Below, one piece after another: positions 4,163-49,738 of a stretch of 64,000 bases of DNA (within the stretch, counting starts at the first letter, position 1; each line of letters begins with the position of its first letter). The notes under the pieces are model-generated. The model did not search any database and was not told the DNA's origin. It worked only from the letters and a program-made list of their open reading frames with translations. The DNA is taken from the NCBI GenBank assembly GCA_963807165.1, contig CAWDZM010000001.1, forward strand, positions 641,471 to 705,470. The letters are read 5' to 3'. The translations under genes and the position numbers were made by a program. Origin of the DNA: an uncultured bacterium (GTDB lineage Bacteria > Patescibacteriota > Minisyncoccia > UBA6257 > 2-01-FULL-56-20).

Positions 4163-6601
4163 ATGCCAGACATGGAACCACAGGAAATAACCAAAGAGCT
4201 CGGCGATTCGTATCTTAGCTATGCGATGTCAGTGATCGTCGCGCGCGCATTGCCGGACGTCCGCGATGGTATGAAGCCGGTGCACCGCCGCGTTTTGTGG
4301 GCGATGTGGGATATGGGCGTTCTCTCCACTGCCAAGTTCCGCAAGTCCGCATACGTCGTCGGCGAAACGATGGCAAAATACCATCCGCATGGCGACTCCT
4401 CTATATATGACACGATGGTGCGCATGGCACAGGATTTTTCTCTGCGCTATCCGCTCGTGCGCGGGCAGGGGAACTTCGGTTCGGTGGACGGTGATCCGCC
4501 GGCCGCCATGCGTTATACGGAGGCCAAGCTCGCCGCGATCGCCAACGAGATGCTTTCGGATATTGAGAAGGATACGGTTGATTGGATCCCAAACTATGAC
4601 GGCACGCGTAACGAGCCGACGGTGTTCCCGGCGCGGTTGCCAAATCTTCTTTTGAACGGCGCGCTCGGCATCGCGGTCGGCATGGCCACGAGCATCCCGC
4701 CGCATAACCTGAACGAGGTTGCTGACGCCATTTTATATTTAGCCGATCACGACGACGCAACGAGCGAGGACCTTTTGCAATTCATCAAAGGCCCGGACTT
4801 TCCGACGGGCGGCATTATCTATGACAACAAGGCGATCAAGGAGGCGTACGTTTCCGGGCGTGGCGGCGTCATCACGCGTGCCAAGACGGACATCGTGGAG
4901 AAAAAGAACAGCCGACAATTCGACATCGTCATTACGGAGATTCCGTATCAGGTCAACAAGTCCGAGCTTATCAAGACGATCGCGGAACTTGCGCAGGATA
5001 AGAAGATCGAGGGCATTCGTGATCTGCGCGATGAGTCCGACCGCGAGGGTATGCGCATCGTGATCGAATTGAAGAACGACGTTGCGCCGCAAAAGGTCTT
5101 GAACTGGCTCTTTAAGCACACTGACCTCGAAAAGAATTTCAACTTTAATATGATTGCGCTCGTGAACGGTATCGAGCCGCGTTTGCTGGATTTAAAAGAC
5201 ATCCTCGCCGAATACATCGCGCATCGCAAGGTGATTGTCACGCGCCGCACAAAGTTTGATCTCCGCAAGGCGGAGGAGCGTGCGCATATTTTGGAAGGGC
5301 TCGCCATCGCGCTCGACGCGATCGACAAGGTCATCGCGACCATCCGTAAGTCGGAAGACAAAGAAGTCGCCCACGTGAACTTGATGAAGAACTTCAAATT
5401 GAGCGCCCTGCAGGCGACTGCTATTTTGGAAATGCGATTGCAGACACTTGCGGCACTTGAGAGGATAAAGATCGAGACAGAGCTGAAGGAAAAGCATGCA
5501 CTCATCGAAGAGCTTAAGTTGATATTAAAGAGTACGACGCGTATTTTAAAGATCATTAAAGATGAAGTGATGGAGTTGAAGAATAAATATGGCGACGAAC
5601 GGCGCACGAAGGTCGTTGGCCGCGCAGTGGAATCCGTGAGCGATGAGGATCTCATCCCGGAAGAAGAAGCGATTGTGACGGTGAGTGGTGGCGGTTACAT
5701 CAAGCGCTTGCCGCCGGGCACGTTCAAGACTCAGAAGCGTGGCGGAAAAGGATTGATCGGTTCCGAGGTTGCCGATGAGGATTTCCTCTCGCACTTCTTT
5801 AGCGCCAACACACACGATAATGTGCTGTTCTTTACCGATCGCGGCCGCGTTTTCCAGACGAAGGTCTACGAGATCCCGCAGGCGACACGCACTTCTAAAG
5901 GCCGCGCTATTCAGAACTTCCTCGAGCTGCCGTCCGAAGAGAACGTGAGCGCTATCGTTAGCTATTCGGCAAAGGGCGCGAAGGCTGAGGGCAAGACCGG
6001 CAAAAAATATTTAATGATGGTCACAAAGCAAGGCGTCATTAAAAAGACACCGCTCGAAGATTTTGAAAACATTCGCCGCAATGGCATCATCGCGCTCTCG
6101 CTCAAGAAGGGCGATCAGCTCAAGTGGGCGCGCCTGACGAGCGGTACGGAGCAGGCGGTGCTCGCCACGCGGCAGGGCCAGTCCATTCGCTTTGATGAGA
6201 AGCAGGTGCGTCCGATGGGTCGCACGGCGGCGGGCGTTCGCGCGATCAAATTAAAAAAACAGAACGATGAAGTGGCCGGCTTTGATATAATAAGAGGAGA
6301 TGATGCGATGTTGCTGATCGTGATGGAGCACGGCTTCGCAAAGCAGACATCGCTCAAGGAATACAAAGTGCAGAGCCGCGGCGGATCGGGCATCAAGACG
6401 GCGGAGGTAACGCCGAAGACAGGAATGGTGGTGTCGGCGCATGTCGTCATGGAGGAAACAGAGATCTTCGCGCTGTCGGCAAAAGGACAGATGATCCGCA
6501 CGGAACTTTCTACGGTGCGCAAGACGGGCCGTTCGGCGCAAGGCGTGCACATCATGGATCTCAAGAACGGTGATCGAGTTGCGGGAACGGTAGTTATCTA
6601 A
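4163..6601 (+). CDS. gyrA: DNA gyrase subunit A
   Basis: [10 protein letters not shown] active-site region, the GyrA-box QRRGGKG, and C-terminal beta-pinwheel repeats. Confidence 0.95.
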
Positions 6602-7993
6602 ATGCCAAAGAACCTTTCTCAAAAGCAGATTATTATCATTGCCGGAGCGGTGGTTTTGGTGCTCATCGGCGCTGTGGTGTTCTTTTTAAACATCCGCTCG
6701 AAGAGCGCGTCACAACAGACGCTCAATCTCACCATCTGGGGAACGGACGACAGCAAGGCATTCAACGATGTGATCCAAGCGTACGCCGGGCCTGGATCGG
6801 GAACGCAGTCGCAGATCAAGTATGTGCAAATCGCACCGGCGCAGTATCAGAGCAAACTGCTCGCGGCGCTTGCCGCCGGCACCGGCCCGGACGTCTTTGA
6901 GATTCCTAACCGTGATCTGGCGCAGTGGCAAAGTGTCGCCGCACCGATTCCTGCCACGCTCACGCCGACGTTCAGCACCGTGACGTTGCAAAATGATTTC
7001 CCGGATGTCGTTTCGCAAGACTTTGTTTCCAGCGCCGGCGCCGTCGGTGGCGGAAATATTTACGCATTGCCGCTTTCGATCGACACGCTCGCGATGATCT
7101 ATAACAAAGATCTTTTTAATACTGCCGGCATCGCGACGGTGCCCTCGACGTGGGAAGGATTGCAGACAGACCTGCCAAAGCTTCGCGTTACGAACGCGCA
7201 GGGTCAGATCACGCAGGCCGCATTCGCGCTCGGCGGTTCGGAGGCGAGCATCGCGGACGCGCCGGATATCGTTTTCCTTTTGATGATGCAGAACGGCGCG
7301 CAGATGAACTCCGCCGACGGCTCGAGCGTGACGTTCGCGACGGGCGGCGATAATGGCGGAGCGAGCGGCACAGGCACGAACGGCGGCATCGGCTCTGCGG
7401 GTGCGGGCAGCATGGACACCGCCGGCCTCAATGCGTTCAACTATTATTTGCAGTTCGCGAACGCGACCGACCAGAACTATACGTGGAATGACGGCATGGG
7501 TGATGCGCTCGCCAACTTTACGCAAGGCAAAGTCGCCGCCATCTTTGATTACTCATCCGCGCTCGCATCCATCAAGGCTGCAGCCCCGTTCCTCAACTAT
7601 GGCGTGGCGCCGATGCCACAGCCTGCGAACGCGATGGTGGCGGTCAACTACGCAAAATACAACGGACTGGCGGTTTCGCGGAACAGCACGCAGATCGCAG
7701 GCGCATGGAACTTCATCGTCAATTTGACGACGTCCGTCGCGGATGAGAATATATATACGAAGGACACGGGCGCCGCGCCGGCTCTGCGGTCGGCGATCGC
7801 GGCGGACGAGACGGATCCCGCGCTTTCGGTCTTCGCCACGCAGGCGCTCACCGCGCGTTCATGGCACGAATCAAACAGCGAGCAGATCGACGGCATCATG
7901 AACACCGCCATCCAAAATGTCCTGAACGGCGCGGCCGATTCCACCACCGCCCTCACCCAGGCGCAGACCGCAATGAATGCGATCGGGGATTGA
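6602..7993 (+). CDS. extracellular solute-binding protein (ABC-transporter SBP family-1-like), membrane-anchored
   Basis: N-terminal TM anchor, then LTIWGTDD..GTGPDVFEIPN.., which is typical of family-1 SBPs. No permease or ATPase partner lies adjacent. Confidence 0.5.
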   Translation: MPKNLSQKQIIIIAGAVVLVLIGAVVFFLNIRSKSASQQTLNLTIWGTDDSKAFNDVIQAYAGPGSGTQSQIKYVQIAPAQYQSKLLAALAAGTGPDVFEIPNRDLAQWQSVAAPIPATLTPTFSTVTLQNDFPDVVSQDFVSSAGAVGGGNIYALPLSIDTLAMIYNKDLFNTAGIATVPSTWEGLQTDLPKLRVTNAQGQITQAAFALGGSEASIADAPDIVFLLMMQNGAQMNSADGSSVTFATGGDNGGASGTGTNGGIGSAGAGSMDTAGLNAFNYYLQFANATDQNYTWNDGMGDALANFTQGKVAAIFDYSSALASIKAAAPFLNYGVAPMPQPANAMVAVNYAKYNGLAVSRNSTQIAGAWNFIVNLTTSVADENIYTKDTGAAPALRSAIAADETDPALSVFATQALTARSWHESNSEQIDGIMNTAIQNVLNGAADSTTALTQAQTAMNAIGD

Positions 7994-8021: not shown

Positions 8022-8501
8022 ATGTTTCTAAAAAAGAACGCCGCGGCAATAGCACTCCTTCTCATCATCGGCTCGTCCGTGGTGTTCCCGCTCGTTGCGT
8101 CGGCATATACGACGCCGAATATTTGGGGGAATCCACCTGGATTCTGGGGTCCACTCGTCTCTTGTACCGGCAATTACCTGACGGGAGCTGGGGCAACTTC
8201 TGGCGCGACCCCTTGTACCAGTCTTTGTGATCTTATCAATACATTTATCAACCTTATCTATTTTGCAATATCGATTGCCCTCTTTATTATCGCGCCGGTA
8301 GCGTTTTTATGCGGCGGCGTGATGATTATGATCGCTGGCGCAAACCCCGGGATGTTGGAATCCGGCAAAAAGGTGCTTACCGGGGTAGTTGTTGGCATCC
8401 TCATTGTTCTATGCTCTTATCTTCTTGTCGCAACCGCCCTTAATGTATTAGGTATCACTCGCGTCGGGGGTTTTGGTGGTGCGACATGCACATCGCATTA
8501 A
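8022..8501 (+). CDS. VirB2/TrbC-like 'T4SS pilin' family protein (paralog 1)
   Basis: Signal peptide plus two TM helices, with the conserved C..I..F and AG.P....K pattern shared with the paralogs at 10238, 10676 and 11128. Confidence 0.6.
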   Translation: MFLKKNAAAIALLLIIGSSVVFPLVASAYTTPNIWGNPPGFWGPLVSCTGNYLTGAGATSGATPCTSLCDLINTFINLIYFAISIALFIIAPVAFLCGGVMIMIAGANPGMLESGKKVLTGVVVGILIVLCSYLLVATALNVLGITRVGGFGGATCTSH

Positions 8502-8504
8502 AAC

Positions 8505-9380
8505 GTGATGAAAAAGATTTCATATTTTTTATTCTCCGCCATAGCTGCTCTCTTTTTATTAATCGCGCCGCTCGTCGCATTCGCACAGACTCAAATAATA
8601 ATTAGTACCAGCGTGCCTGGGACATATGGACCCACCACAGGTGCGGGAGGTCCAGGCTCATTCATCGCAAATTTTTACCAATTCGCATTAATGATCGGTG
8701 GGGTACTTGCCTTTGGAGTTATTGTGTATGGAGGAATACGATATATGGCATCTGCGGGAAATCCTTCCGGGCAAAGCGACGCGAAAGAATGGATTGAGGC
8801 AGCACTGTTGGGGTTGTTATTACTGGTGGGCGTCTACTTTATTCTCAGCGTCATTAATCCACAACTACTCAATCTTAATTTGCCATCGCTTACTCCGATC
8901 AGTATATCGAATATCACGCCAGTGGGTGGAGGAGGGACTAATAGCGGCGGCGGAGGAACCGGAGGTTTCTCATTGGGTGGCAGCGGATTACCTTCTAATA
9001 TTGCGGCCGCTGCGGCTGCAGCCCAAGCTAATAGCATGAGTTCAGCGAACGGGCCGGGCGGCGGCACCGTCGCATGCGCTTGGGCGGTGAATCAAGTTCT
9101 TTCTAGTACGGGTATTGCCCCGATCGACACCAATAACGTTCAGAGCATGGAAAATGCTTTGACGTCAGGCCGGGGGACGCTGGTTGACCCGTCGCAGGCG
9201 GTGGCTGGTGATATTGTTATTCAAGCGCAGGACGGTCATGTCGGCATTTGCATGAATAACGGCTGCACTCAAGTCATATCGAATTCATCATCACATGCGA
9301 CGTTCACCTGGGTAAGTAATACAAGTTTTTCTCCATCGTATAGCGGTGGTCCTGGTCGTATTTATCAAGTTAATAAATAA
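8505..9380 (+). CDS. T4SS-pilin-like N-terminal domain fused to a CHAP/NlpC-P60-like cysteine peptidase domain
   Basis: The N-terminus FALMIGGVLAFGVIVYGGIRYMASAGNPSGQSDAKEW matches the pilin paralogs. The C-terminus has CAWAVNQVL ... GDIVIQAQDGHVGIC (Cys/His CHAP signature), joined by a Gly-rich linker. Confidence 0.6.
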   Translation: MMKKISYFLFSAIAALFLLIAPLVAFAQTQIIISTSVPGTYGPTTGAGGPGSFIANFYQFALMIGGVLAFGVIVYGGIRYMASAGNPSGQSDAKEWIEAALLGLLLLVGVYFILSVINPQLLNLNLPSLTPISISNITPVGGGGTNSGGGGTGGFSLGGSGLPSNIAAAAAAAQANSMSSANGPGGGTVACAWAVNQVLSSTGIAPIDTNNVQSMENALTSGRGTLVDPSQAVAGDIVIQAQDGHVGICMNNGCTQVISNSSSHATFTWVSNTSFSPSYSGGPGRIYQVNK

Positions 9381-9384
9381 TAAT

Positions 9385-10218
9385 ATGAAAAAGTTTATCT
9401 GGATTATTGTCGCGGTGGTCGTCGTCAGCTTGATCGCATGGGCTATCTGGGCTGTTATGGTTACAAAAAATTCGCAGTCAACCAATTCAATTACATCACT
9501 GCCGCCAGTGCAGAGTCAGACTCAAAGCGGGGCGTCGGTTCCCGTCCAAAGCATTCCGCGTCCGCAAGATCCAGTGGTTGCTAAAAATTTTCTTAGCGAT
9601 ATACAAAATGCGGATCAGATTGCTCTTGGCGGTACCGTTATCGCATCTCCATATGCACTACAGATCTGGGGTGATGTAAACAAAGGAGGGGAGGCATTAT
9701 TGGAACAATCATCATCAACGGGATGGAAATTAATTTCTCTTGGCGGCGGCGAATGGAGTGTCCTTGCGCTTGTACAGGAAGGCGTGCCAGTGGCAGCGGC
9801 AGAACAATTGGTCGCAGGCTTAACGAGCGGGTCATCAACGCCATCCATTGCTCCACCGATCGCTATCCCGCCCGGAAACACGATCAGTATAGGAACATCA
9901 AACGGAGTTGTGACGATGAATAATTTTTATAACCATGCGGATTATATCTCGCAAGACCAGCAGGCGGTGGTAGTTCAAGGATCCTCGACTTATAGTATTG
10001 TTTACAACATTCCAGATAGCAGCTTTACTTTAACCATCATCGGTTCTCCATTTGATATCGTGCGTCAAGTGATGGAAACTGTATTTTTGAATTCACTGGG
10101 GATATCACAACAAGATGCTTGTAAGTTGCTTGTATCCGAAAACGTCCCGGGCGACTCTTCTAATCAATATGCAGGCCAAACATTCCGGTTGAGCTTCTGC
10201 AGCTCTGCGGTACAGTAA
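9385..10218 (+). CDS. membrane-anchored hypothetical protein
   Basis: MKKFIWIIVAVVVVSLIAW TM anchor. No recognisable domain. Confidence 0.5.
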   Translation: MKKFIWIIVAVVVVSLIAWAIWAVMVTKNSQSTNSITSLPPVQSQTQSGASVPVQSIPRPQDPVVAKNFLSDIQNADQIALGGTVIASPYALQIWGDVNKGGEALLEQSSSTGWKLISLGGGEWSVLALVQEGVPVAAAEQLVAGLTSGSSTPSIAPPIAIPPGNTISIGTSNGVVTMNNFYNHADYISQDQQAVVVQGSSTYSIVYNIPDSSFTLTIIGSPFDIVRQVMETVFLNSLGISQQDACKLLVSENVPGDSSNQYAGQTFRLSFCSSAVQ

Positions 10219-10237
10219 TACGACCTTATTTGCTATA

Positions 10238-10600
10238 ATGAATACAATGAAAAAGATGGTCGGAAGAATAGGGCTTATGGGAGGCATCGCCGCCTTTTTT
10301 CTCTTTCTAGAAACATCCTTCGTAAAAGCGCAGACCCTCACCGATCCGCTCGGTGGCAAGGAAACTTTTATTAGTGTGGCAAATGATATCGCGCATTTTC
10401 TTCTCTACGACATTGCTATCCCGCTTTCGGTCATTATGGTGCTGGTCGGCGCTTTTCAATTTATAACGGGGGGAGGGGATCCGGCGAAGATCTCCGAGGC
10501 AAGGAAAACAATATTATATGCGGCAATTGGGCTTGGGGTCGCCCTTATCGCAGGAGGGATCACCTCGCTCATCAAAAGCATTCTTCCAAACGGTTCATAA
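10238..10600 (+). CDS. VirB2/TrbC-like T4SS pilin family protein (paralog 2)
   Basis: FITGGGDPAKISEARKTILYAAIGLGVALIAGG aligns with paralogs 3 and 4. Confidence 0.6.
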   Translation: MNTMKKMVGRIGLMGGIAAFFLFLETSFVKAQTLTDPLGGKETFISVANDIAHFLLYDIAIPLSVIMVLVGAFQFITGGGDPAKISEARKTILYAAIGLGVALIAGGITSLIKSILPNGS

Positions 10601-10675
10601 TAAACGTGGTATTTTAAGGCAAAATATGAGACACTGGATAGTAATAAAGGGTCGAAACAAATCTTTTAACTGATT

Positions 10676-11059
10676 ATGAGCACTATCAAAAAGTTTTTTG
10701 TGTCATCGCCGGTTTTTGGAACGTTAGCATTATGGGGAATACACGCCTCGGTGGTTTTGGCGCAAACCTCCGGTGCTACGTCTCCTATCACCGATGAAAC
10801 AGACCTTCAGCAGCTCATGTGTAATATCATTGATTGGTTTTTCTGGGTCATCATTATTATCTCGGTGATTATGGTGCTGGTTGCAGCATTCGATTACATC
10901 ACTGCCGGGGATGATACCGAAAAGATCTCGCTTGGGCGCAAACGCCTGACGTACGCAGCGGTAGGGATTGCTGTTGCGTTATTGGCAGCCGGATTCCCTA
11001 AAATTGTTGCAAGCGTTTTCCCAAATACGGTAAACGCGGAAGTTTCTTGCCTGGGTTAA
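10676..11059 (+). CDS. VirB2/TrbC-like T4SS pilin family protein (paralog 3)
   Basis: YITAGDDTEKISLGRKRLTYAAVGIAVALLAAG. A conserved AAAGGGTCGAAAC motif lies upstream. Confidence 0.6.
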   Translation: MSTIKKFFVSSPVFGTLALWGIHASVVLAQTSGATSPITDETDLQQLMCNIIDWFFWVIIIISVIMVLVAAFDYITAGDDTEKISLGRKRLTYAAVGIAVALLAAGFPKIVASVFPNTVNAEVSCLG

Positions 11060-11127
11060 GCGCGGTGTGCTAACATTCTTAAGTACCTAAGAAAGGTCGA
11101 AAAACCCTCTTAACAATTCATTAGATC

Positions 11128-11535
11128 ATGAAAAAATTAATCAATGTAGCAAAGGAATTCAGCCCCTCGATCATCGCGTTAGTGATGGCAGTGCCGGCAT
11201 TTGCCTTTGCGCAGCTTAGCGCGCCGCCGAGCGGTGGCGGAGTAACTCCGGTCAGTGTTCCGCAGGGGAACATCAGTAGTTTGTCGGGAGTCCTTCAGCT
11301 CCTTTGTAACGTTTTCGGTTGGGCGTTCTACTTCCTCATCGTGCTTGCCGTCATCTTTGTTCTTTACGCGGCATTCAAGTATCTCACCGCAGCCGGTGAG
11401 CCGGAGAAAGGTAAAAGAAGCCGGGTCGGTCTTGCTCTATGCGGCAATCGCCGTTGGCGTTGCGCTTTTGGCAAAAGCAGTCCCGCTCGTCGTGGGAAGC
11501 TTCCTTGGCGCAGGCACCGTGGGTTCCTGCTAATA
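11128..11535 (+). pseudogene. T4SS pilin paralog 4, interrupted by a 1-nt frameshift near 11405-11425
   Basis: Frame 1 gives ..YLTAAGEPEKG*. The adjacent frame (ORF 11255..11533) continues ..VKEAGSVLLYAAIAVGVALLAKAV, which matches the paralog C-termini. Confidence 0.5.
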
Positions 11536-11663
11536 GCGAAATCGTCTTTAGAGAAGTTCAAAAAGCCCCGCAAGGGGTTTTTTGGTTTTGCGCAAAAAAT
11601 TTAAAAGATAGAAAAATCCCCCAACAACCGAAGCTGCTGGGGGATAAATTACTGCAATGCGCT

Positions 11664-12920
11664 CTACGAGACGCGGACGCTTTGGGGCATCTCGATATCT
11701 CCATAGTCGCCATTCCACCGAAGGTGGAACTTGATCATTATACGGTTTGATTCGCCGAAACTGTCATCTTTGAATTTGATGCCGAATTTCGCAGAATCTC
11801 CATGTTTGAGGACAACATTCCAGCCGAGGTCGGAAGTAATCCAGTTAAGCGGAAGAGGAACAACATTGCTTTCGTTGTCGGTTGCGGCCCCTCCCTCTTT
11901 CATGGCAAGTTCTTTCGGGTTGCCCTCTACGCTTGTGAAGATCGCGTCGCACGTGATGAATTTGTTCAGGCGGTGAACGCAGTTCTGGACGACAATATCA
12001 AGATCGCCCACTACTGCGGCCACTTGCACTGGCGCGGCGTTCGGATCGGGAGTTGGAGCAGGTGTTGTTTGCGGAACCACCTGTCCTTCAGCGACCCCCG
12101 AGCCTTTTTCTTCCAATCCCTCTTGGGAAGAGGAATCTGTCTGCCGGGGTGATTTCACGGGTTCTTCAATTTTTTTTGGGCTACCCGTGTCAGCTGCCGG
12201 GTCCTTTGCTTTTGACCTCGCCGAAGCCAGAGGATCCGGGATCGCTGGCGTCTCCGCAGCAGGTTTCTGGGATTGCTCATCCGTTTTTGCCTCCACGCGT
12301 CGATCAAAGTTGAAGTTGATGACGATGGGATTGGTGTGGGCGCCCTTGGTGTCGGAGAAAGGCGTGTACAGGAAAAACAACAACGTGATCCCGCCGAATA
12401 AAATGGCGAGACCGACGACGACGAGTTTTAACTTCTTGATCCCCGCGGCACAGGCGATCGCTGCCAGAATGATGATCTGGGTGAGCGCCAAAGGTCGGTT
12501 GTTCGCAATGGGTATCCAAGCGAAGTAGAGGCCCAGGAGCAGTTCAATTACGAGGACGATCCGAAGCACGTTCGTCGCCTGTCGCGCCCTTGAAACGAAC
12601 TCTCCAATAAATCGAGTTTTCGGCGAAAGCATCGCTTCCATCGCAAAGATCGACATCGGCATCGGCGCGGTCATCATCCACATGAGGGCGATGAACACGA
12701 CGATCGTGAGGGTTGGAATCAGGTACCGCACGGGCCACATCGGCGAGCTTGGCAGTGCCACGAGCAGCAGGACGAACGGCCACGCGATGGCCATCCGTGT
12801 CGCAATGGTGAGGCGGCGCATGATGATCCAGGCGGCGCGGCTGACTCTTCCTGCCGCTACCCGCCCGATCTCGGATGCGAGTTCGCTCAGGTCGTGCAGT
12901 AGGGCAAACGGCTCGTTCAT
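11664..12920 (-). CDS. polytopic membrane protein with disordered Pro/Ala-rich linker and C-terminal extracytoplasmic domain
   Basis: ~6 TM helices followed by low complexity and a ~130-aa globular tail. There is a 4-nt overlap with the upstream gene. Confidence 0.6.
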   Translation of the reverse strand: MNEPFALLHDLSELASEIGRVAAGRVSRAAWIIMRRLTIATRMAIAWPFVLLLVALPSSPMWPVRYLIPTLTIVVFIALMWMMTAPMPMSIFAMEAMLSPKTRFIGEFVSRARQATNVLRIVLVIELLLGLYFAWIPIANNRPLALTQIIILAAIACAAGIKKLKLVVVGLAILFGGITLLFFLYTPFSDTKGAHTNPIVINFNFDRRVEAKTDEQSQKPAAETPAIPDPLASARSKAKDPAADTGSPKKIEEPVKSPRQTDSSSQEGLEEKGSGVAEGQVVPQTTPAPTPDPNAAPVQVAAVVGDLDIVVQNCVHRLNKFITCDAIFTSVEGNPKELAMKEGGAATDNESNVVPLPLNWITSDLGWNVVLKHGDSAKFGIKFKDDSFGESNRIMIKFHLRWNGDYGDIEMPQSVRVS

Positions 12921-16697: not shown

Positions 16698-16743
16698 ATG
16701 GTCATCTGACTGGAGGCGGGGAGCGCCTCTTTCTTTTCTGCCC

Positions 16744-16772
16744 TTGCTATTTATTCAATAATAAGCTATGAT
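16744..16772 (+). promoter_or_regulatory. rpsO promoter (TTGCTA-17-TATGAT), ATG 8 nt downstream, implying a leaderless transcript
   Basis: The -10 ends at 16772 and the rpsO ATG is at 16781. Confidence 0.4.
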
Positions 16773-16780
16773 GAACCATA

Positions 16781-17047
16781 ATGCTTACTAAACGAGTCAA
16801 AACCCGCATCGTCGGGGAGAATAAGAAACACGACACGGACACGGGTTCTGCGCAGGTGCAGATCGCAATGACCTCGCGCCAGATCGACGAATTGGCCGCG
16901 CACCTCAAGAAAAACCCGAAGGATAATCACTCCCGCCGCGGACTTTTGAAGATGGTATCCAAGCGCAGGAAATTGCTGGCGTATATGAAGAAGCACGAGC
17001 CTTCTCTGTACGAGAAACTCATCAAGAAGCTCGACCTTAAAAAATAA
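16781..17047 (+). CDS. rpsO: 30S ribosomal protein S15
   Basis: 88 aa with the S15 signature ..HSRRGLLKMVSKRRKLLAYMKK. Confidence 0.9.
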   Translation: MLTKRVKTRIVGENKKHDTDTGSAQVQIAMTSRQIDELAAHLKKNPKDNHSRRGLLKMVSKRRKLLAYMKKHEPSLYEKLIKKLDLKK

Positions 17048-17739
17048 TGAAGTCCGAAACCAATCATTCCAACCAGCGGGTTGGGATTTTTGTTGATGTA
17101 TCCAATCTGTATCACTCGGCGAAGAACCTCTACCAGGGCCGCGTGAACTACGCTGAGCTTATAAAGAGCCTCGTCGCCGGGCGCCAGCTGATCCGCGCGA
17201 TGGCATACGTGGTGCGCAGTGAGGGCGTGGAGCCGCAGCAGGCGCGCGGGCATGCGCAGGCGCGCATGGCGGAAAAGGATCAGGCGGCGGCGGTTTCGAT
17301 CGTGCCGGCATCCTCGAATGGATCTAATGGTAACGGCGCAAATGGCGACGGTAACGGCGGCCCTTCTTCCGAAGCGAGTTTTTTTGATGCACTCGAGAAG
17401 GCAGGCTTGGAGCTCCGCATGAAAGATCTGCAGATCTATGCCGGCGGTATGAAGAAAGGCGATTGGGATGTCGGGCTCACGGTGGACGTCATCCGCATGA
17501 TGCCGTTCCTCGATGTGATCATTCTGGTGACTGGCGATGGTGATTACATCCCGTTGGTCAATTACGTAAAATGGGCAGGAGGGCGAGTGGTCGAGATCGC
17601 CTCGTTTCGAAGGAGCGCGTCATCCAAACTAGTGGAGGCCGCCGACGAGTTTGTAAATATAGAGAATATTCCTCGCGCGATCATGAAGCCGCGGTATGTA
17701 GCGACGAGAAACAAGAGGCCGCAGTCGGATGACCATTAA
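17047..17739 (+). CDS. NYN-domain (LabA-like) protein with Gly/Asn-rich insertion
   Basis: VGIFVDVSNLYHS, GDWDVGLTVDVI and VTGDGDY motifs. The start overlaps the rpsO stop. Confidence 0.7.
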   Translation: MKSETNHSNQRVGIFVDVSNLYHSAKNLYQGRVNYAELIKSLVAGRQLIRAMAYVVRSEGVEPQQARGHAQARMAEKDQAAAVSIVPASSNGSNGNGANGDGNGGPSSEASFFDALEKAGLELRMKDLQIYAGGMKKGDWDVGLTVDVIRMMPFLDVIILVTGDGDYIPLVNYVKWAGGRVVEIASFRRSASSKLVEAADEFVNIENIPRAIMKPRYVATRNKRPQSDDH

Positions 17740-17896
17740 AAAATAATTAAATTAACCGAAGCGCGATAAAGGGGATGTCATTCCGAGCTTTGCGCGAGAT
17801 CGAAGGAGGCGAGTAGCGATAGGTGCCGCCACTGACGATCTTGCATAAAGCTCAGGATGACAAGACTCTCCAGGTTCGCCGCTTCACATTAAAAAT

Positions 17897-20044
17897 ATGT
17901 TACAGAAAAAGCAATTTTCCGTTGAGATCGCAGGAAAGACGTTGACGATAGAGACCTCCGCACTCGCCGAGCAGGCGAATGCCGCAGTTATCGCAAAGTA
18001 TGGCGAGACCGTCGTACTTGCGACCGCCGTCATGGCTCGCAAGGAGAGCGATATCGATTGGCTCCCGCTTAAAGTTGATTACGAAGAAAAATTTTACGCC
18101 GCAGGAAAGATCATCGGTTCACGCTACGTGCGTCGCGAAGGCCGCTCGTCCGAAGAGGCGATCTTAGCCGGCCGCTTGGTGGATCGCACCATCCGTCCAC
18201 TCTTTAACGATAAAATGCGTCGCGAGATCCAGGTGGTCGTCACGGTGTTGCAGATCGACGGCGAGAATGATCCGGAATTCGTCGGATTGATCGGCGCTTC
18301 CACTGCGCTCCTTATCTCCGACATCCCGTGGAACGGTCCGGTTGCCGGCGTGCGCGTTGCGCAGACGCCTGCAGAGCTGAACTTGGGCTTTTGGATCAAT
18401 CCGGACAATAGCGCCACGGAAAAGAATCCGCCGATCTTCGACGCGTTCGTTTCCGGTTCCAAAGATCGTATCAATATGATCGAACTTGGCGGATTGGATG
18501 CCCAAGAGAGGGACGTTGTTGCCGGCTTTACGCTCGCACAGAAGGAGATCAACAAACTGATTGAGTTCCAGGAAAAGATTCGCGCGGAGATCGGCAAGCC
18601 AAAGGCGGAAGTTATTTTGGCGGAGCCGGATGCCGACATCAAAGCGGAGGTGCGCGCATTCTTGGCGGACAAATTGGAAGGCGCAATCTATAAAGCCACA
18701 AAGGAAGAACACACGACCGCCGTTGGTGCTTTGAATCACGACCTCAACCTGCACATCAAGGAAAAATTCGGCGCAACCAAAGAAAAGATCAACTGGAAAG
18801 CGTTGGAATATATGTTCGACGAGATGGTAAACGATCTGGTACACAAGAATATTTTGGAAAAGGAGCAGCGCCCGGATGGCCGCACACTCGACGAAGTGCG
18901 CGCGCTCGACGGCGAAGTGGGATTATTCTCCCGCACGCATGGCTCAGCACTCTTCGTCCGCGGCAACACGCAGGCGCTGGCGATCACCACGCTCGCGGCG
19001 CCCGGGGCCGAACAGCTGATCGAATCCATGGAGACCAACGCCAAGCGGCGCTTTATGTTGCACTACAACTTCCCGCCGTTCTCGGTTGGTGAAGTTGGTA
19101 ACTTCCGCGGCCCCGGGCGCCGCGAGATCGGCCACGGTAACCTTGCACGCAAATCGATCGAGCGCTTACTCCCGAGTAAAGAAGAATTCCCGTACACGAT
19201 CCGTGTCGTTTCCGAAATCATGTCTTCCAACGGCTCGTCTTCTCAGGCTACGGTCTGCGCAACGACGCTCTCATTAATGGACGCCGGTGTGCCGCTCAAG
19301 AAACCGGCCGCGGGTATCGCGATGGGTTTGATGATGGCGACCAACGCCGACGGAACATCCGACGTAAATAACTACAAAGTATTGACCGACATCCAGGGAC
19401 CGGAGGATCACCATGGCGACATGGATCTCAAGGTTGCGGGTACAGACGACGGCGTGACCGGCATGCAGATGGACGTCAAAGTGGACGGACTCACGATGGA
19501 GATTTTGGCGAAGGCGTTCGAGCAGGCAAAGGCGGCGCGCATTCATATCTTGAAGACGATCAAAGCGGTATTGCCGACGCATCGCGAGGCGATCTCGCCG
19601 TTTGTGCCGAAGATCCGTCAGTTCAAGATCGACCCGTCCAAGATCGGTACGGTCATCGGTCCTGGCGGCAAGATGATTAACGGTCTCATCGCAAAGTACG
19701 AGCTGGCCGGTATTGATATCGAAGAGGATGGCGGCGTGTATGTCTCCGGTGTTGACCTCGCAAAGGTGGAGGCCGCCGTCGCGGAGATCATGGGTATGAC
19801 GAAGGAGTGGAAGGTAGGAGAAATCGTGGAAGGCCCGATCGTGAAGATTTTGGAATTCGGCGCGATCGTCGACCTCGGCGGTGGTGCAGACGGCATGATC
19901 CATGTTTCCGAGCTCAAACAGGGATTTGTGAAGCAGGTGGAAGACGTTGTGCATCTCGGCGACCACATCCGCGCGAAGATCATCAAGGCAGAGAACGGCA
20001 AGATCGGCTTGTCGTTGAAGCAGATGGAGCAACCGGCGGCGTAA
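17897..20044 (+). CDS. pnp: polyribonucleotide nucleotidyltransferase (PNPase)
   Basis: Two RNase PH domains plus KH plus a C-terminal S1 domain. It keeps the rpsO-pnp linkage. Confidence 0.95.
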   Translation: MLQKKQFSVEIAGKTLTIETSALAEQANAAVIAKYGETVVLATAVMARKESDIDWLPLKVDYEEKFYAAGKIIGSRYVRREGRSSEEAILAGRLVDRTIRPLFNDKMRREIQVVVTVLQIDGENDPEFVGLIGASTALLISDIPWNGPVAGVRVAQTPAELNLGFWINPDNSATEKNPPIFDAFVSGSKDRINMIELGGLDAQERDVVAGFTLAQKEINKLIEFQEKIRAEIGKPKAEVILAEPDADIKAEVRAFLADKLEGAIYKATKEEHTTAVGALNHDLNLHIKEKFGATKEKINWKALEYMFDEMVNDLVHKNILEKEQRPDGRTLDEVRALDGEVGLFSRTHGSALFVRGNTQALAITTLAAPGAEQLIESMETNAKRRFMLHYNFPPFSVGEVGNFRGPGRREIGHGNLARKSIERLLPSKEEFPYTIRVVSEIMSSNGSSSQATVCATTLSLMDAGVPLKKPAAGIAMGLMMATNADGTSDVNNYKVLTDIQGPEDHHGDMDLKVAGTDDGVTGMQMDVKVDGLTMEILAKAFEQAKAARIHILKTIKAVLPTHREAISPFVPKIRQFKIDPSKIGTVIGPGGKMINGLIAKYELAGIDIEEDGGVYVSGVDLAKVEAAVAEIMGMTKEWKVGEIVEGPIVKILEFGAIVDLGGGADGMIHVSELKQGFVKQVEDVVHLGDHIRAKIIKAENGKIGLSLKQMEQPAA

Positions 20045-35114: not shown

Positions 35115-38100
35115 ATGAATAAAAATAAATTGGTTTCATCTGTTCTCGCTGTTGCCACTTTGGTGGTAATGGTCGGAACGCCTCTGGTGAACGCAAGCGC
35201 GCAGACCACGTCGAGCCTTCAGGCTCAGATCGCGGCATTGCTCGCCCAGATCCAGACCCTCCAGAGCCAATTGAATGCTTCTGGCACCACGACCACTTCG
35301 GTCGGCGCAAACACCTATAACTTTACCAGCGACCTCACCGTTGGTTCTACAGGTTCTGCGGTAATGGCACTCCAGCAGTTTTTGATTGGACAGGGAGATC
35401 TCGTTCTCGCTACGCCGACCCAGTACTTCGGTGCGCTTACCCAAGCTGCACTCGCAAAGTTCCAGGCCGCGCATGGCATCACTCCTTCTGTCGGTTACTT
35501 CGGTCCTAAGACGCGCGCTTTCGTTAACTCGATGAGCACGTCCACGACCACCACGACGACCACCACGACGGGCACGATTGCTCCGGTTGGTGCGCCGTTG
35601 TCTATCTCACTCGATGCGCAGACCCCGGGTTCCTCGAACGTAGCGGCTGGCGCGGTGAACACTCCGGTCTTGAAGCTTGACTTCACGGCTGGTGCAACGC
35701 CCGTCACCATCACGAACTTGGTGTTGACCCGTTCAGGTCTTTCGCAGGATTCCGACTTGGATAACGTCTACCTCTAGCAGTGCGCGGTACCAAGTTGGCA
35801 TCAAACCTCGGCTTCAACAATGGGGCGATCACCTTCTCGAATGGCGCAGGACTCTTTACGGTTCCGGCGAATTCCACGCAGGTCATCACCGTCACTGTTG
35901 ATGTCGATAATGGTGGAATTGGCAAAAACAATGTCACTGTTGCAGCGGATTCCGGCCATATCTTCCAGATTGGCTTGGCTTCCGCGAGCAATGTAACCGG
36001 CGGCACTTTCACGGGCAACTTCCCGTTGGAGAGCGCGCAGTTCACGATCGCATCCGTCACAAATTTGGCGACGACTTACCGTCTCCGGCCCTCAGACTTC
36101 TTCGACGACCGTGAATGCGGGCCAGTTGGATGATCTCGTTGGTCAGTTCACCGTTCAGGCCGGTAATAACCCGGTCAAGGTGACACAGTTAAACTTCACG
36201 AATGTCGGAAGCGTAACGCCAAGCTACCTCCAGAACGTCAAATTGATGGATGGCTCAACCCAGCTTGGTGCGACCATCACCTCTCTTGGCAGCAACAACA
36301 TTGCGACGTTCGACCTTTCTGGCGCGCCGCTCATGTTGACCTCCGGCCAGTCGGCGGTGTTGTCGCTCTATGCGGACATCACGGGTGGCGTAAATCGCAA
36401 CTTCCAGTTCTCTATCCAGCAGTCGTCTGACATTCAGGCGGAGGATACGACCTATGGGGTTGGCATTGGTGCGACCCTCCAGACAGGCCTTTCGTTCCCG
36501 ATTGATTTCTCCTGTGGTTACCATCAGTAATGGCGGCGTAGTGGCATCGAGGGATGCGAACACCCCGACCACCTACGCGGTGGCAGGGAATACCAATCAG
36601 GTGCTCGGCGATGTTTGATGTCTTGGCTTCCGGCGACAGCATCAAGTTCAATGAAATGGACTTCTGGCTACACGCTTGAACAATGGCGACACGATCAATA
36701 ACTTCCGCGTTGTTGATGACCAGGGTGCTCAGATCGGCACAACGGTCAATACGACCGCTGGTGCGACAGCAACAATGTTAACGGTATCGTTGCTGAAGGC
36801 AGCGGCAGTTTGAACTACATCATTCCGGCCAACACGACTCGTGTCTTGACGGTCTATGGTGATTTGCCTTCGAATGCTTCTGGAACGGTAACGTGTGACA
36901 TTCGGTGAACCGAGTGGCACTTTCGGCTCCAACAATGGTACTTCTGCGGAGAGCTACACGACCTATGCGAACGCGACGACGACGGCTGTTTCTGGAAACA
37001 CCCTCCAGATCTTGAACTCGAATACGAATCTTCTCATAAGCGAGAACTACGGTTTGGGTTCTCCGGTGTCTGCAGCGGCGGTGCGCCCAGCATGTAGAGA
37101 TTGGATCGTACACGCTTACGGCGGGACAGGTGAATGGTGTTAATTTGACGGGCGTTACCATCTCGGCAACGAGCACCCTTCCGGTTAACTACCTGACAAA
37201 CCTTGAGGTGTTCGATGGTTCTACCCAGATCGGCCAGACCTATTCTACGGTAGTCGCTGGAAATGCGCTATAACTTCAACACCAATTCCCCGATTGCGAT
37301 TCCGGCGAATGGCTCCGTCACGCTCGATGTTTACGCAAACATTAGCTCGAACGTAAGCGCTCAGACGGTATCTCGGCGACGACTTTGTCGGCGGTAAATG
37401 CTTCGACCCAGGCGGGTAATGCCGATAACGGTCCAGCTCGACGGCAGGCCAGAATCTTTCCTTCAACACGGGAGGTACGCTGAGTGGCTCGCTCTCGGCA
37501 GGTACGTCGCAGGCATCCTAGCTTGGCATGGGTATCACGGGCGTGAATGTCGCCCAGTACCAGTTCGTCGCTGACAATAACGGCAGCGAGACCCTGACGA
37601 AATTGGTGATTCTCGACAGCTACAACCACGGCGAACACCTCGACTGCTTGGCGCTCAAGCCTTCGGATCTCATCAACTATCGGTTGACGGATTCGGCAGG
37701 CAATGTGCTTAGCACGGCGAGTGAGGATCGAACGGTACGTTGACCTTCAACTTGACTGGCTTGCCATTCCTGTGAATGGAACGCAGTACGTGAATTTGGT
37801 GGCGGATACGAATTCATACCCGTATGCGACATCAGGCGGATACGCATGCGTATGATCTTGACGAGCTACCAGTACACCAACGCTACGCAGTCGAGACGAC
37901 GAGCACTCTGGCCAACGGCATGGGTAACCTCTTCACGGTTTACCAGACAACGCTTGGTGTGGCTGGTACTTCGGTTGGTCAACGCCCGAACAACATCTCC
38001 GGTGTTGAGCAACATCGTGGGTGAGTTCAACTTCACGGCTGGCAGTGGCAACATCGAACCCGAAAGTGTTGAACAAGGTTACCTTGTCGAACCGGTGGTT

Positions 38101-38530
38101 CGTTGATCCAGGCAAGCACGATCGCAGACCCTCGGCCTCTATGATGCCTCGGCTCCGTCGGTGCTCTTGGCTTCTTCAACAGCAACCTCAGACGATACAG
38201 CATGACGTTCACCTTTGCGAATCTGAACCGAACCAGTGGACAATTCCGTACAGCTCTACAAAGACATTACTCGTAGAAACGTTGTCTGTCGCCGACTGGC
38301 GGCGCTTTGGGCGGTTCGCTGACGAATGGCAACAGGTGGCAGTTATCAGGTGTTCTCACTGGTTAACAGTGGACTGATGGTCCGTCGTGGCACGGCGATG
38401 GTACGACGACGCTGGGTGCGAATACTTACGTTCGGCATTGGCTTAGCCCGTCTATCTCGATCGCCGGTTCCGAGCCGAACATCACTGACTTGTCCAACTA
38501 GTCTGGTATCCCTCCGATCCGATCGCTTGT
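35115..38530 (+). pseudogene. large secreted cell-surface protein: signal peptide + PG_binding_1 domain + Thr-run + ~100-aa repeats, shattered by >10 frameshifts/stops
   Basis: The intact N-terminus (35115-35777) has TFTSDLTVGSTGSAVMALQQFLIGQGDL ... GYFGPKTRAFV. Downstream, the reading frame switches repeatedly (track ORFs 35780, 36111, 36895, 37528, 37846, 38021 ...), yet repeat motifs such as DGSTQLG/DGSTQIG persist. A terminator follows at 38547. Confidence 0.55.
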
Positions 38531-38546
38531 GACGATCGGATAGGAA

Positions 38547-38580
38547 AAACAAAACAGCCCTTCGGGGCTGTTTTGTTTTG
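38547..38580 (+). terminator. rho-independent terminator (AAAACAGCCCttcgGGGCTGTTTTGTTTTG)
   Basis: Perfect stem plus U-run. Confidence 0.55.
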
Positions 38581-42858: not shown

Positions 42859-43452
42859 ATGATTCTCTCCGACCGCGATATTAAAAAAGCGTTAAAATCT
42901 GGGCGCATTTCCGTCGCGCCGCTGTTCCCGCACGCGATACAACCGGCATCGATCGATCTTCATCTCGGCGCGGATTTTTTGGTGTTCCGCACCAACCAGG
43001 ATATTTGCATCGATCCCAAAGAGCCGATCGATCACATGATGGAGAAGGCAACGATCAACGATAAAAAACAATTCATCATTCATCCGGGTGAATTTGCGCT
43101 TGGCATGATCTACGAAGTGGTAGGCGTCGGCGATGATATGGTGGGACGGCTTGAGGGCAAGTCATCGCTTGGACGCATCGGTCTTATCATTCACGCGACG
43201 GCAGGATATCTCGATCCGGGAAATAAATTAAAGATGACGCTCGAGCTACACAACGTCTCACCGCTTCCGATCAAGCTATACTATAAAATGCCGATCGCGC
43301 AGATGTCGTTCACGCCACTCTCTTCTCCGGCAGATCATCCCTATGGCAAAAAAGCGCTAGGCAGTAAATATTACGGCGCGATGAAGCCGCAGGCATCGCA
43401 ATACTGGAAGAATTTTAAGAAGAATAATCAGTGGATGAAATTTGGAAAATAA
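42859..43452 (+). CDS. dcd: dCTP deaminase (dUTPase superfamily)
   Basis: MILSDRDI N-terminus and dUTPase-fold motifs. Confidence 0.9.
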   Translation: MILSDRDIKKALKSGRISVAPLFPHAIQPASIDLHLGADFLVFRTNQDICIDPKEPIDHMMEKATINDKKQFIIHPGEFALGMIYEVVGVGDDMVGRLEGKSSLGRIGLIIHATAGYLDPGNKLKMTLELHNVSPLPIKLYYKMPIAQMSFTPLSSPADHPYGKKALGSKYYGAMKPQASQYWKNFKKNNQWMKFGK

Positions 43453-48667: not shown

Positions 48668-49738
48668 ATGTTCCCATTTTTTAAAGAAGCATCATATCTT
48701 GGCGTTGATATCGGCACGACCTCCATCAAAATGGTCGAGGTTGTGGCGGGAAAGAAGGCGCCGCGCGTCGTGAATTACGGCGAGCTGGAATCGAGCGGCT
48801 ATCTCGCACGCGCCAACCAGGCGCTGCAGACGAGCGGTTTAAAGATATTTGAGGAAGATGCGGTAGCATTACTCAAAGCCCTCGTGAAACAACTTGCGCC
48901 GGCGACGCAGGATGTAATCGCCTCACTGCCGCCATTCGATGTCTTTATGACCCTCGTCGATTTCCCTGCGATGGAGGCAAAGGACGTCGCGAAGGCGTTG
49001 GTCTATCAGGCAAAGCAATATGTGCCGATGCCGCTTTCCGAAGTGGCGCTCGACTGGATGAAGATCGCAGATTATCAGGACGAGAAAGGATTCGCGCATC
49101 AGAAAATATTATTGATCTCCGTCCCGCAGGAACAAATCAAAAAATATCAGCGGATGTTTGCCGCAGCAGGATTGCGCTTGCGTGCGCTCGAGATCGAATC
49201 GCTTTCCATCGCGCGCATCTTTTCCGGCGATCCTACGCCGACGACCATCGTGGATATCGGCTCCCGATCCACGAATATTATTTTCATGGAAAAAGGCGTC
49301 CTCGCGTGGAGTTCGCAGAGCGATATCGCCGCGTCATCGCTCACGCAGGCGCTCGCGACGAGTCTGGGAATCAATCCCATGCGTGCGGAAGAGCTCAAAA
49401 AAGAGCGGGGGATACTTGGCACCGGTCCTAACTACGAGTTATCCACAATAATGATGCCGTTTTTAGATGGTATAGTTAATGAAGTGAAGAAGGCTACTTA
49501 TAGCTACCGCCAGCAGTTCCCTACAGCAACGGTGGCGGAGCGGATTATCCTTACCGGGGGAGGCGCGAACCTTTCCGGTATCGAAAAATATTTCGAAAAG
49601 GGATTTGGGATCCCCGTGGTAAAGGCAACTCCCTTTTCACGGTTTGAATGCCCCGATGCGATCGCGCCATTTATTCCCGAGCTTGGCGCTCCAATGACGG
49701 TCGCCCTCGGGCTTGGAATGAAGCAGTTCGTCAAATAA
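48668..49738 (+). CDS. pilM: type IV pilus assembly protein PilM (actin-like ATPase)
   Basis: LGVDIGTTSIKMVEV N-terminus with an FtsA/actin fold pattern. Confidence 0.85.
   Translation: MFPFFKEASYLGVDIGTTSIKMVEVVAGKKAPRVVNYGELESSGYLARANQALQTSGLKIFEEDAVALLKALVKQLAPATQDVIASLPPFDVFMTLVDFPAMEAKDVAKALVYQAKQYVPMPLSEVALDWMKIADYQDEKGFAHQKILLISVPQEQIKKYQRMFAAAGLRLRALEIESLSIARIFSGDPTPTTIVDIGSRSTNIIFMEKGVLAWSSQSDIAASSLTQALATSLGINPMRAEELKKERGILGTGPNYELSTIMMPFLDGIVNEVKKATYSYRQQFPTATVAERIILTGGGANLSGIEKYFEKGFGIPVVKATPFSRFECPDAIAPFIPELGAPMTVALGLGMKQFVK

Follow-up and report, generated by a model that had tools for sequence, protein, structure and literature searches.

Why would an ultrasmall bacterium keep on its chromosome a row of genes for type IV secretion system (T4SS) pilins with none of the secretion machinery beside them, and one of the pilins fused to a cell-wall hydrolase? 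The question is raised by a stretch of 64 kb (hereafter the window, i.e., the whole of the DNA analyzed; positions 641,471 to 705,470 of GenBank contig CAWDZM010000001.1) that is chromosomal DNA of a bacterium of the Candidate Phyla Radiation (CPR, Patescibacteria), an ultrasmall lineage. The window contains gyrA, PNPase, recA, ftsK and clpB as well as a complete gene cluster for type IV pili, and the named homologs of its proteins come from Paceibacterota, Kaiserbacteria, Minisyncoccia and 'Parcubacteria' metagenome-assembled genomes (MAGs). Six close-packed genes on the plus strand, g1 to g6, lie at 8022-11533 with intergenic gaps of 3-75 bp. We consider it likely that they form the pilin and wall module of a T4SS of the Patescibacteria type (MPF-FATA-derived), encoded apart from the ATPase and translocon genes. 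The six genes are:

8022..8501, plus strand: g1, Cys-rich VirB2-like pilin, 159 aa; signal peptide ending in ...VASA before YT; Cys69 before helix 1 and Cys156 after helix 2
8508..9380, plus strand: g2, pilin::hydrolase fusion, 290 aa; signal peptide ending in ...AFA before QT; hairpin at about residues 49-121
9385..10218, plus strand: g3, non-pilin partner, 277 aa; N-terminal transmembrane (TM) helix and two extracytoplasmic domains, A and B
10238..10600, plus strand: g4, Cys-free VirB2-like pilin, 120 aa; signal peptide ending in ...VKA before QT
10676..11059, plus strand: g5, VirB2-like pilin, 127 aa; signal peptide ending in ...VLA before QT; Cys49 and Cys125 flanking the hairpin
11128..11533, plus strand: g6, VirB2-like pilin with a one-base insertion at ~11410; 134 aa when repaired, with Cys60 and a C-terminal Cys134

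An initial annotation of this DNA had proposed five consecutive VirB2/TrbC-like pilin paralogs. The genes are not consecutive, as g3 separates g2 from g4, while the family assignment was borne out. Four of the five pilins exceeded the Pfam gathering threshold of PF18895 (26.6 bits), i.e., g2 (31.3 bits), g4 (31.9), g5 (41.2) and the repaired g6 (35.0, against 20.3 for its N-terminal fragment). The remaining one, g1, stayed below it with 22.3 bits and was recognized by a local family hidden Markov model (HMM; 40.1 bits, E=6e-11). The threshold of TrbC/VirB2 PF04956 (27.9 bits) was not reached: g4 (25.9 bits, E=1.1e-5) and g5 (24.6 bits, E=2.9e-5) fell just under it and the other pilins of the window gave no match. 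To judge by these profiles, the window pilins are kin to TrbC/VirB2, yet not members by the Pfam criterion. Similarly, scores of 18.9-28.8 bits against NCBIfam NF045849 (cut-off 40), the Mbov_0395 family of Mycoplasma integrative and conjugative elements (ICEs), were obtained for g4 (E=1.8e-5), g5 (8.8e-4) and repaired g6 (7.4e-7), so that they are not members of this family either, although it also consists of small two-helix pilin-like proteins from wall-less or monoderm MPF-FATA-type T4SSs.

The architecture of all five is the one initially described, a signal peptide and, after it, two hydrophobic helices that a short loop with basic residues links into a hairpin, as seen in the sequences and their alignment. 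The signal peptides end in A-x-A (…AFA before Q, …VKA before Q, …VLA before Q, …ASA before Y). Two further features that had been ascribed to the whole set turned out to be more restricted, the AG.P.K..R..L.YAA motif being found in g4-g6 only and the Cys-containing helix in g1, g5 and g6 only. Signal peptide, two helices, short basic loop and a mature size of ~90-130 aa are shared with VirB2 (the Agrobacterium T-pilin), TrbC (RP4) and TraA (F), to which the sub-threshold TrbC matches of g4 and g5 also point. Pairwise identity among the five is 13-35%. We regard the five genes, on the evidence of their sequences, as VirB2/T4SS-pilin-like paralogs. In some proteins of the same kind elsewhere, a single polypeptide contains pilin-hairpin domains in tandem, from two up to about eleven (P0271, of 1147 aa with 11 matched stretches; P0234, P0244 and P0245; and the products of 4079-5406 in L037 and 11060-11653 in L040, L numbers denoting the related loci that we compared).

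The second gene combines such a hairpin with an enzyme-like domain. In the AlphaFold2 (AF2) model of g2 the hairpin helices (49-81 and 86-116) have a confidence (pLDDT) of ~90, a disordered Gly/Ser/Ala-rich linker (about 128-159, ~35 residues) falls below 50, and a separate C-terminal NlpC/P60-CHAP-like domain of 130 residues (about 160-290) reaches 72-90. The catalytic candidates are Cys190 (9075-9077), His244 (9237-9239) and Asn259 (9282-9284), which together with Asp235 and Arg222 are invariant in 34 full-length g2 homologs, all of them matched by PF18895. The Cys/His pair on which the initial annotation had let this assignment depend is thus present after alignment. The equivalent residues (C35, H89 and N104 in the numbering of A3, a domain-only alignment and profile of the g2-type catalytic domain) are invariant in 27 domains from several phyla. 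When A3 was searched against the sequences in the PDB, it matched the NlpC/P60 endopeptidase CwlO (E=4.8e-6), the catalytic His of the two being aligned, followed by a Clostridioides difficile wall hydrolase (4.3e-4), the phage endolysin Lys2972 (6.1e-4) and, more weakly, Spr/MepS, RipA and a Tn916-like hydrolase. With the whole model, the top Foldseek matches were the NlpC/P60 hydrolase Cg1735 and the effector Tse1 of the type VI secretion system (T6SS), both weak (E=0.15-1.5; ~1 for Tse1).

The description of g2 as a CHAP/NlpC-P60-like fusion therefore stood as to its Cys/His(/Asn) domain and its profile match to CwlO, but not as to Pfam CHAP itself: PF05257 (threshold 26 bits) gave no match to the window protein at E<=1, and matched 25/34 homologs at E<=0.1, always below threshold (best E=1.9e-5; 19 bits for the homolog in L007). 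We assign the domain, from sequence comparison, to the papain-like NlpC/P60-CHAP superfamily and to neither of the two Pfam families. Like CwlO, LytF, MepS/Spr and RipA it has a papain-like Cys-His(-polar) core, with its His region aligning to CwlO; unlike them it has no LysM, SH3 or coiled-coil region, and identity is below about 20%.

Small two-helix hydrophobic proteins adjoining a peptidoglycan hydrolase, with a phage endolysin (Lys2972, E=6e-4) among the PDB sequence matches, could also make up a lysis cassette of prophage type, with holin-like proteins and an endolysin. We reject this on context as extremely unlikely, given that the proteins have cleavable signal peptides and belong to PF18895, that no phage genes are found nearby, and that the five paralogs have orthologs at a conserved site after gyrA and a solute-binding protein (SBP) gene in several lineages.

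The fusion had been called unusual. A large protein search recovered instead hundreds of proteins of ~280-310 aa, some with PF18895 plus the CHAP-like domain and others with PF18895 plus SLT_3 (PF18896), so that sister fusions of the pilin::SLT_3 kind are common as well. A profile search over 1.84 billion representatives (clusters at 50% identity) gave 397 clusters at E<=1e-30, and ~45 of the best 150 representatives cover both the pilin and the CHAP-like domain in one stretch. By sequence, the pilin-hydrolase fusion is common in the phylum. A fusion of the pilin::SLT_3 kind and one of the pilin::CHAP kind are almost adjacent in CP064968 (L003), a genome of Kaiserbacteria. Other arrangements were seen too: a single protein of 494 aa (L012, 9200-10684) joins VanY (D-Ala-D-Ala carboxypeptidase), the pilin hairpin and the CHAP-like domain, and relatives of 544-553 aa (L007, 5057-6718; L031, 8693-10327) have a long N-terminal extension ahead of the hairpin. 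The public annotation of g2 itself (database protein P0001, 255 aa) seems to have its start, probably an internal GTG, ~35 codons past the ATG at 8508, by which the signal peptide would be lost; the homologs align from the ATG at 8508.

If these are T4SS pilins, where is the T4SS? The initial annotation had stated that there is no T4SS machinery. This holds for the 64 kb of the window, where no VirB4-, VirB3-, VirB6- or VirD4-like gene was found and the large ATPases are FtsK, ClpB, PilB and PilT, but it does not imply absence from the genome. An unlinked pilin array is the normal state in the phylum and no sign of missing machinery. Published surveys describe arrays of 2-11 pilin genes, often unlinked from virB4. 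VirB4 was found in 2,417/3,035 Patescibacteria assemblies (80%), in Paceibacteria typically near dnaA/dnaN, and VirB2-like genes in 1,948 of the VirB4-positive assemblies, in just 1,135 of them near virB4 (PMC12102498).

Relatives provide the physical link. In the Patescibacteria MAG L011, the order is a PrgI/VirB3-like gene (PF12666, 35.4 bits), a gene for 224 aa, VirB4 (NCBIfam NF045971, 'CD1110 family', 373.8 bits for a cut-off of 325), a gene for 329 aa, pilin::CHAP, a g3-like gene and a gene for 435 aa, with dnaA-dnaN ~1.3 kb beyond the latter. The fusion is therefore located two genes downstream of VirB4. Compared with the window, none of the eight proteins of this cluster had a homolog there. 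In two cyanobacterial loci, L026 and L030, the hydrolase/partner pair has a gene for a VirD4-like coupling protein (NF045973, below cut-off with E about 1e-30) ~1 kb downstream, and in L019 an ATPase of 954 aa with weak similarity to TraC/VirB4 is encoded upstream of it. If a VirB1-like protein is understood as an anchored hydrolase encoded inside a T4SS cluster, the homologs in L011, L026 and L030 are placed as one, and the window copy has no T4SS neighbours. Within L011 (1-15298), four proteins of the T4SS cluster beside dnaA/dnaN (709, 1097, 329 and 435 aa) have no Pfam match and are candidate lineage-specific T4SS components.

The same evidence bears on a T4SS-independent role, in which the PF18895 hairpins would be small bitopic membrane proteins or anchors that organize peptidoglycan hydrolases for growth, division or envelope upkeep, with neither a pilus nor secretion. 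The operon of the window lies among housekeeping genes, with gyrA upstream and no T4SS genes around; in several relatives the pilin::CHAP fusion sits after clpB, or (L001) alone with its partner gene; L012 unites VanY, hairpin and CHAP in one protein; and no T4SS pilus has been observed in Patescibacteria. Nevertheless, the similarity to TrbC/VirB2 and to NF045849 is consistent even if sub-threshold, the pair is physically linked to VirB4 and PrgI in L011 and to the coupling protein in cyanobacteria, PF18895 and virB4 are statistically associated in the published survey (1,135 assemblies), and the array is essential within the T4SS cluster of Ca. Southlakia epibionticum. We find such a wall-remodelling module quite unlikely. 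In the published view Patescibacteria T4SSs have no relaxase, and Ca. S. epibionticum needs both the T4SS and the pilin array to grow as an epibiont (PMC10633639, PMC12857230), in line with the surface-filament or cell-contact role, rather than canonical conjugation, that had been suggested for the locus.

The gene that interrupts the pilins, g3, appears to be the partner of the hydrolase. Its domain A (about 60-150) is widespread and in every case comes after the hydrolase gene, and domain B (about 160-277), with two conserved Cys in the alignment (A2), was seen only in the Patescibacteria-type homologs among those recovered; the AF2 model has a pLDDT of 85.9. Using local HMMs against the open reading frames (ORFs) of 41 distinct related loci, we found a g3-like gene <=30 bp downstream of the CHAP-like gene in 34/41 loci (one of the seven exceptions ends at a contig edge), usually with domain A alone and about 125-200 aa long. 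The g2-g3 layout is thus that of a gene with an adjacent, co-inherited small partner. The pairing extends outside Patescibacteria, to cyanobacteria, a Rickettsiales MAG and a Vulcanimicrobiota MAG. In BLASTP, g3 and the cyanobacterial partner in L017 (10397-10828) are 39% identical over 57 aa (E=5e-8). In cyanobacteria the CHAP-like domain, ~50% identical, is the C-terminal part of secreted proteins of ~730-810 aa without pilin hairpin, whose middle region is putatively lysozyme-like from sequence alone and has no Pfam match. Moreover, g3-like genes follow the pilin::SLT_3 fusions in L003, L010 and L029.

No known family could be assigned to g3. It has no Pfam family; its sole NCBIfam match, NF033672 ('copper uptake system-associated protein'), was sub-threshold at 29.4 bits and probably reflects a shared small fold without functional meaning. 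Foldseek gave no PDB fold match (best E=0.044, to an unrelated fold). A scaffold of the VirB8/PrgL/TraM/TraH type was considered in view of the TM segment and discarded, as neither VirB8, PrgL nor TraM was among the Foldseek PDB matches and no VirB8-type match was obtained in Pfam or NCBIfam. The conserved adjacency and the shared compartment suggest that g3 is a regulator, inhibitor, immunity factor or assembly partner of the hydrolase.

These pairs admit an offensive interpretation, a lytic pilus in which g2 is a minor pilin of the filament and displays its endopeptidase so as to breach the host wall at contact, with g3 as immunity protein or inhibitor that protects the wall of the producer. 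A small gene right behind a hydrolase gene, conserved across phyla, is the usual layout of effector and immunity genes, for example T6SS Tse1-Tsi1, and g3 would be membrane-anchored on the same side as the enzyme. Besides, Tse1 was one of the few (weak) structural neighbours of g2; pilins of the VirB2/TraA type have both their ends at the outer pilus surface, which would allow the display of a C-terminal domain; and Patescibacteria are epibionts whose T4SS is essential on hosts. On the other hand, the cyanobacterial pair occurs in conjugation-like clusters without a pilin anchor, which argues for an ancestral housekeeping role like that of VirB1; g3-like genes also follow the SLT_3 fusions, whose catalytic fold differs; g3 has no similarity to Tsi1 or known immunity folds; and polymerisation is without support. 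We think the lytic pilus, the foremost of the rival readings, possible but unlikely. The broader proposal, that the hairpins of g2 and of pilin::SLT_3 are true pilins polymerised into a T4SS filament, the pilus carrying wall-cutting enzymes that open the host wall and the g3-like proteins being a new inhibitor/immunity family shared with cyanobacterial conjugation systems, strikes us as rather improbable.

The number of pilins had been attributed to paralog expansion. Paralogs they are, but a recent expansion is not what we found. Each has its own ortholog, in preserved order, in the relatives: g1 in L002 (9366-9995) and L004 (9480-9953), g4 in L004 (11747-12094, 48%) and L002 (11780-12151, 44%), g5 in L004 (12174-12551, 48%) and L002 (12163-12516, 41%), g6 in L002 (13028-13420, 63%). 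Such one-to-one orthologs in the same order indicate that the set is ancient, and the paralogs are probably subfunctionalised, e.g., as a major pilin and minor pilins. Being old and non-redundant, they fit these roles better than that of antigenic variants.

Three of the five pilins (g1, g5 and g6) have one Cys just ahead of helix 1 or at its beginning and another after helix 2; g4 and g2 do not, and some g2 homologs do. Scored on 42 distinct pilin domains from these loci, both Cys were present in 24 and neither in 17, with a single discordant domain (Fisher p=7e-11, kinship ignored). In hairpins of the VirB2/TraA type both ends are on the outer side of the membrane, and on the outer surface of the pilus, and VirB2 (T-pilin) and TrbC are cyclised head to tail by a peptidase. 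Since both ends lie outside the membrane, and given the strict co-occurrence, the Cys pair probably forms a disulfide that joins the ends of the hairpin, analogous to head-to-tail cyclisation.

As sequenced, g6 consists of two overlapping ORFs in frames 1 and 2, and the single-nucleotide frameshift initially noticed is present. The sequence reads …GAG AAA G GTA AAA GAA…, with an extra G after the codon AAA (11407-11409) that shifts the frame. Deletion of base 11410 restores a pilin of 134 aa that matches its relatives, with the loop 'GEPEKVKEAGSVLLYAAIAV'; loop GEPEKVK is identical in the intact gene at 12538-12948 of L002, and close variants occur in intact genes at 13028-13420 of L002 (GDPEKVK; 63% identical overall to repaired g6) and 12589-13059 of L004 (GDPENIK). 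The out-of-frame 3' part remains well conserved and free of stop codons, which points to a very recent change or an assembly error. An indel error is plausible also because a second gene of the window is multiply broken. At ~35115-38550 (plus strand) a large Thr/Ser/Asn/Gly-rich gene of surface-protein type is split into at least seven ORF fragments in differing frames, and between 36530 and 39799 every ORF is shorter than 120 aa; either heavy indel error has affected this gene or it is decayed/variable. Programmed +1 frameshifting in g6 was considered and judged unlikely, as no slippery or pause context is recognisable and the orthologs are in frame.

Could the frameshift, together with the missing machinery, mean that the locus is a non-functional remnant being lost? 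The frame of g6 and the second broken gene (~35.1-38.5 kb) would agree with decay. Yet the remaining five genes are intact, the 3' part of g6 is free of stops in a gene 63% identical to its ortholog, and operon order and content are kept across distant relatives. A single-base indel in a window with another broken gene is better explained by an error of assembly, or by a change that is very recent or phase-variable, than by decay. A decaying locus is accordingly very unlikely.

Taking the locus as the pilin and wall module of a T4SS, we can propose how it would work. The pilins would be made with a Sec signal peptide and cut after A-x-A. The mature hairpin would then lie with its short basic loop to the cytoplasm and both ends outward, as sequence, AF2 model and the known topology of VirB2/TraA suggest. 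In g1, g5 and g6 the Cys before helix 1 and the Cys after helix 2 would form a disulfide stapling the ends. Extraction and assembly would depend on a VirB4-based machine encoded elsewhere, probably near dnaA to judge from the relatives and the literature, and the five pilins, as old non-redundant paralogs, would provide the major pilin and minor pilins. In g2 the hairpin may act as membrane anchor and the flexible linker bring the endopeptidase to the assembly site, where it would open the organism's own peptidoglycan locally, as VirB1, PrgK and TraG do. Finally g3, anchored in the same compartment, might bind, regulate or restrain the hydrolase, a step that we infer from conserved adjacency alone.

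Several points weigh against this proposal. There is no T4SS ATPase or translocon gene within the 64 kb, g1 remains under the PF18895 threshold, g6 is out of frame as sequenced, and for the window g2 the CHAP and NlpC/P60 Pfam models stay short of threshold and the Foldseek hydrolase matches weak. A pilus has never been seen for any Patescibacteria T4SS (PMC12857230), and a pilin with a C-terminal domain of 170 residues may never polymerise. As neither a fold nor a family can be recognised for g3, any role given to it is a guess, and its occurrence after pilin::SLT_3 is a poor fit to a simple inhibitor of the CHAP active site.

In comparison with known systems, the locus is a typical member of a described class, the arrays of VirB2-like pilins known from Patescibacteria (Ca. 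Southlakia epibionticum ML1, SEML1_0006-0019; Ca. Nanosynbacter lyticus TM7x; PMC12102498), and not a new kind of system. It shares with them divergent tandem PF18895 genes, sometimes with a non-pilin gene between, the chromosomal location, the monoderm lineage and the absence of a relaxase nearby, and its pilin identities compare with a published mean of 25%. The published arrays are most abundant in Microgenomatia and Saccharimonadia, whereas the window locus is Paceibacteria/Parcubacteria-like by its homologs and its array lies outside the virB4 cluster. Here a hydrolase is fused to one 'pilin', and the gene between the pilins is a conserved hydrolase partner, neither of which those papers discuss, and the one-to-one orthologs argue against the idea of antigenic variation raised in them. 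As far as literature searches show, the hydrolase in a pilin fusion, its partner gene, the Cys pair and the orthology of the paralogs are not discussed. Against VirB2, TrbC and TraA the differences are larger. Their systems are diderm, with TrbC and VirB2 cyclised, where here the Cys pair is the likely substitute; the window locus has no VirB5, VirB7, VirB9 or VirB10, and pilus formation is unproven.

The hydrolase finds its closest functional parallel in PrgK (pCF10), TraG (pIP501) and CD419/TcpG, also membrane-anchored peptidoglycan hydrolases with SLT and/or CHAP-type domains, which are encoded beside VirB4 like the g2 homolog in L011. TraG and PrgK contain an SLT plus CHAP pair (PMC12102498). 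The neighbouring pilin::SLT_3 and pilin::CHAP fusions of L003 jointly reproduce it, with the two lytic activities on separate proteins, each followed by a g3-like gene, and with a VirB2-like hairpin behind a cleavable signal peptide as anchor instead of a single N-terminal TM segment. According to the survey most VirB2-bearing genomes lack VirB1 (PMC12102498), which would imply that the pilus needs no wall hydrolase. The g2 CHAP-like domain is too divergent for models of the Pfam/CONJScan type used in that survey, and pilin::CHAP and pilin::SLT_3 proteins would probably be counted as pilins and not as VirB1. In the locus studied here the hydrolase is present, hidden in a VirB2-like fusion.

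A large part of bacterial diversity belongs to Patescibacteria, whose T4SS, pilin array included, is essential for growth on host bacteria. The locus refines the view of this system. The partner family, without Pfam or NCBIfam assignment and extending from Patescibacteria to cyanobacterial conjugation clusters, is a candidate new family of T4SS accessory proteins or inhibitors. The co-occurring Cys suggest a disulfide in place of pilin cyclisation, and the paralog orthology argues for distinct major and minor pilin roles over antigenic variation. All these points, hydrolase, partner, Cys pair and orthology, are testable in the genetically tractable Saccharibacteria.

The surroundings of the array are the following:

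6602..7993, plus strand: SBP_bac_1, membrane-anchored solute-binding protein (Pfam PF01547, 93.2 bits)
11560..11588, plus strand: terminator-like hairpin, AAAAAGCCCC-GCAA-GGGGTTTTTT plus T run, at the operon end
48668-61645: type IV pilus cluster with PilM, PilN, PilO, PilB (51313-53031), PilT, PilC, PilD (prepilin peptidase), a major pilin and three or more minor pilins that carry N-methylation motifs

Directly 5' of g1 are gyrA (4163-6601) and the SBP gene, the latter beginning immediately past the gyrA stop codon (6601). From gyrA through SBP to g1-g6 the genes stand close together on a single strand, up to the terminator-like hairpin. The fold of 11535-11660 has -36.1 kcal/mol (z=-3.1), and 0/200 shuffles were equally stable; the hairpin was absent from the output of a consensus terminator scan. 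The promoter scan gave no enrichment versus shuffles and the Rfam scan only tRNAs. The initial annotation was right in its SBP-like neighbour. No ABC permease or ATPase was seen near this gene, and orthologs hold the same place upstream of the pilin operon in L002 (8030-9349), L004 (8159-9475), L037 (934-2379) and L040 (7838-9310); the orphan SBP may be a member of the module, e.g., for ligand binding at the cell surface. The order SBP, Cys-rich pilin, pilin::CHAP, g3 and several pilins after gyrA is repeated in L002 and L004. More distant loci, L037 (Moranbacteria) and L040 (Parcubacteria), have it without the leading g1-type pilin, gyrA being visible upstream only in L040. The genes 3' of the array are not conserved in related loci. 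A membrane protein of 418 aa (11664-12920, minus strand) and its neighbours of 201 and 350 aa were considered as VirB6-like or module genes and discarded, having no family matches and being absent from all related loci.

The type IV pilus system elsewhere in the window (~48.7-59.4 kb) is complete, as had been noted, and is followed by a protein of 714 aa with an Ig-like (ASH/CFAP65-type) domain. In an ORF of 566 aa at 43442-45142, the ThyX (Thy1) domain covers residues 337-526 only and the N-terminal ~330 residues have no Pfam match; a fusion, a wrongly called start or a merging of ORFs could account for this. Among the relatives, the GyrA of L002 (4198-8010, 1270 aa) bears an intein with a LAGLIDADG homing endonuclease, while the window GyrA (812 aa) has none. 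In L001, a reverse transcriptase with a weak match to RVT_1 adjoins a bAvd-like gene at 16733-18222, ~6 kb away from the fusion, a pair that may be a diversity-generating retroelement.

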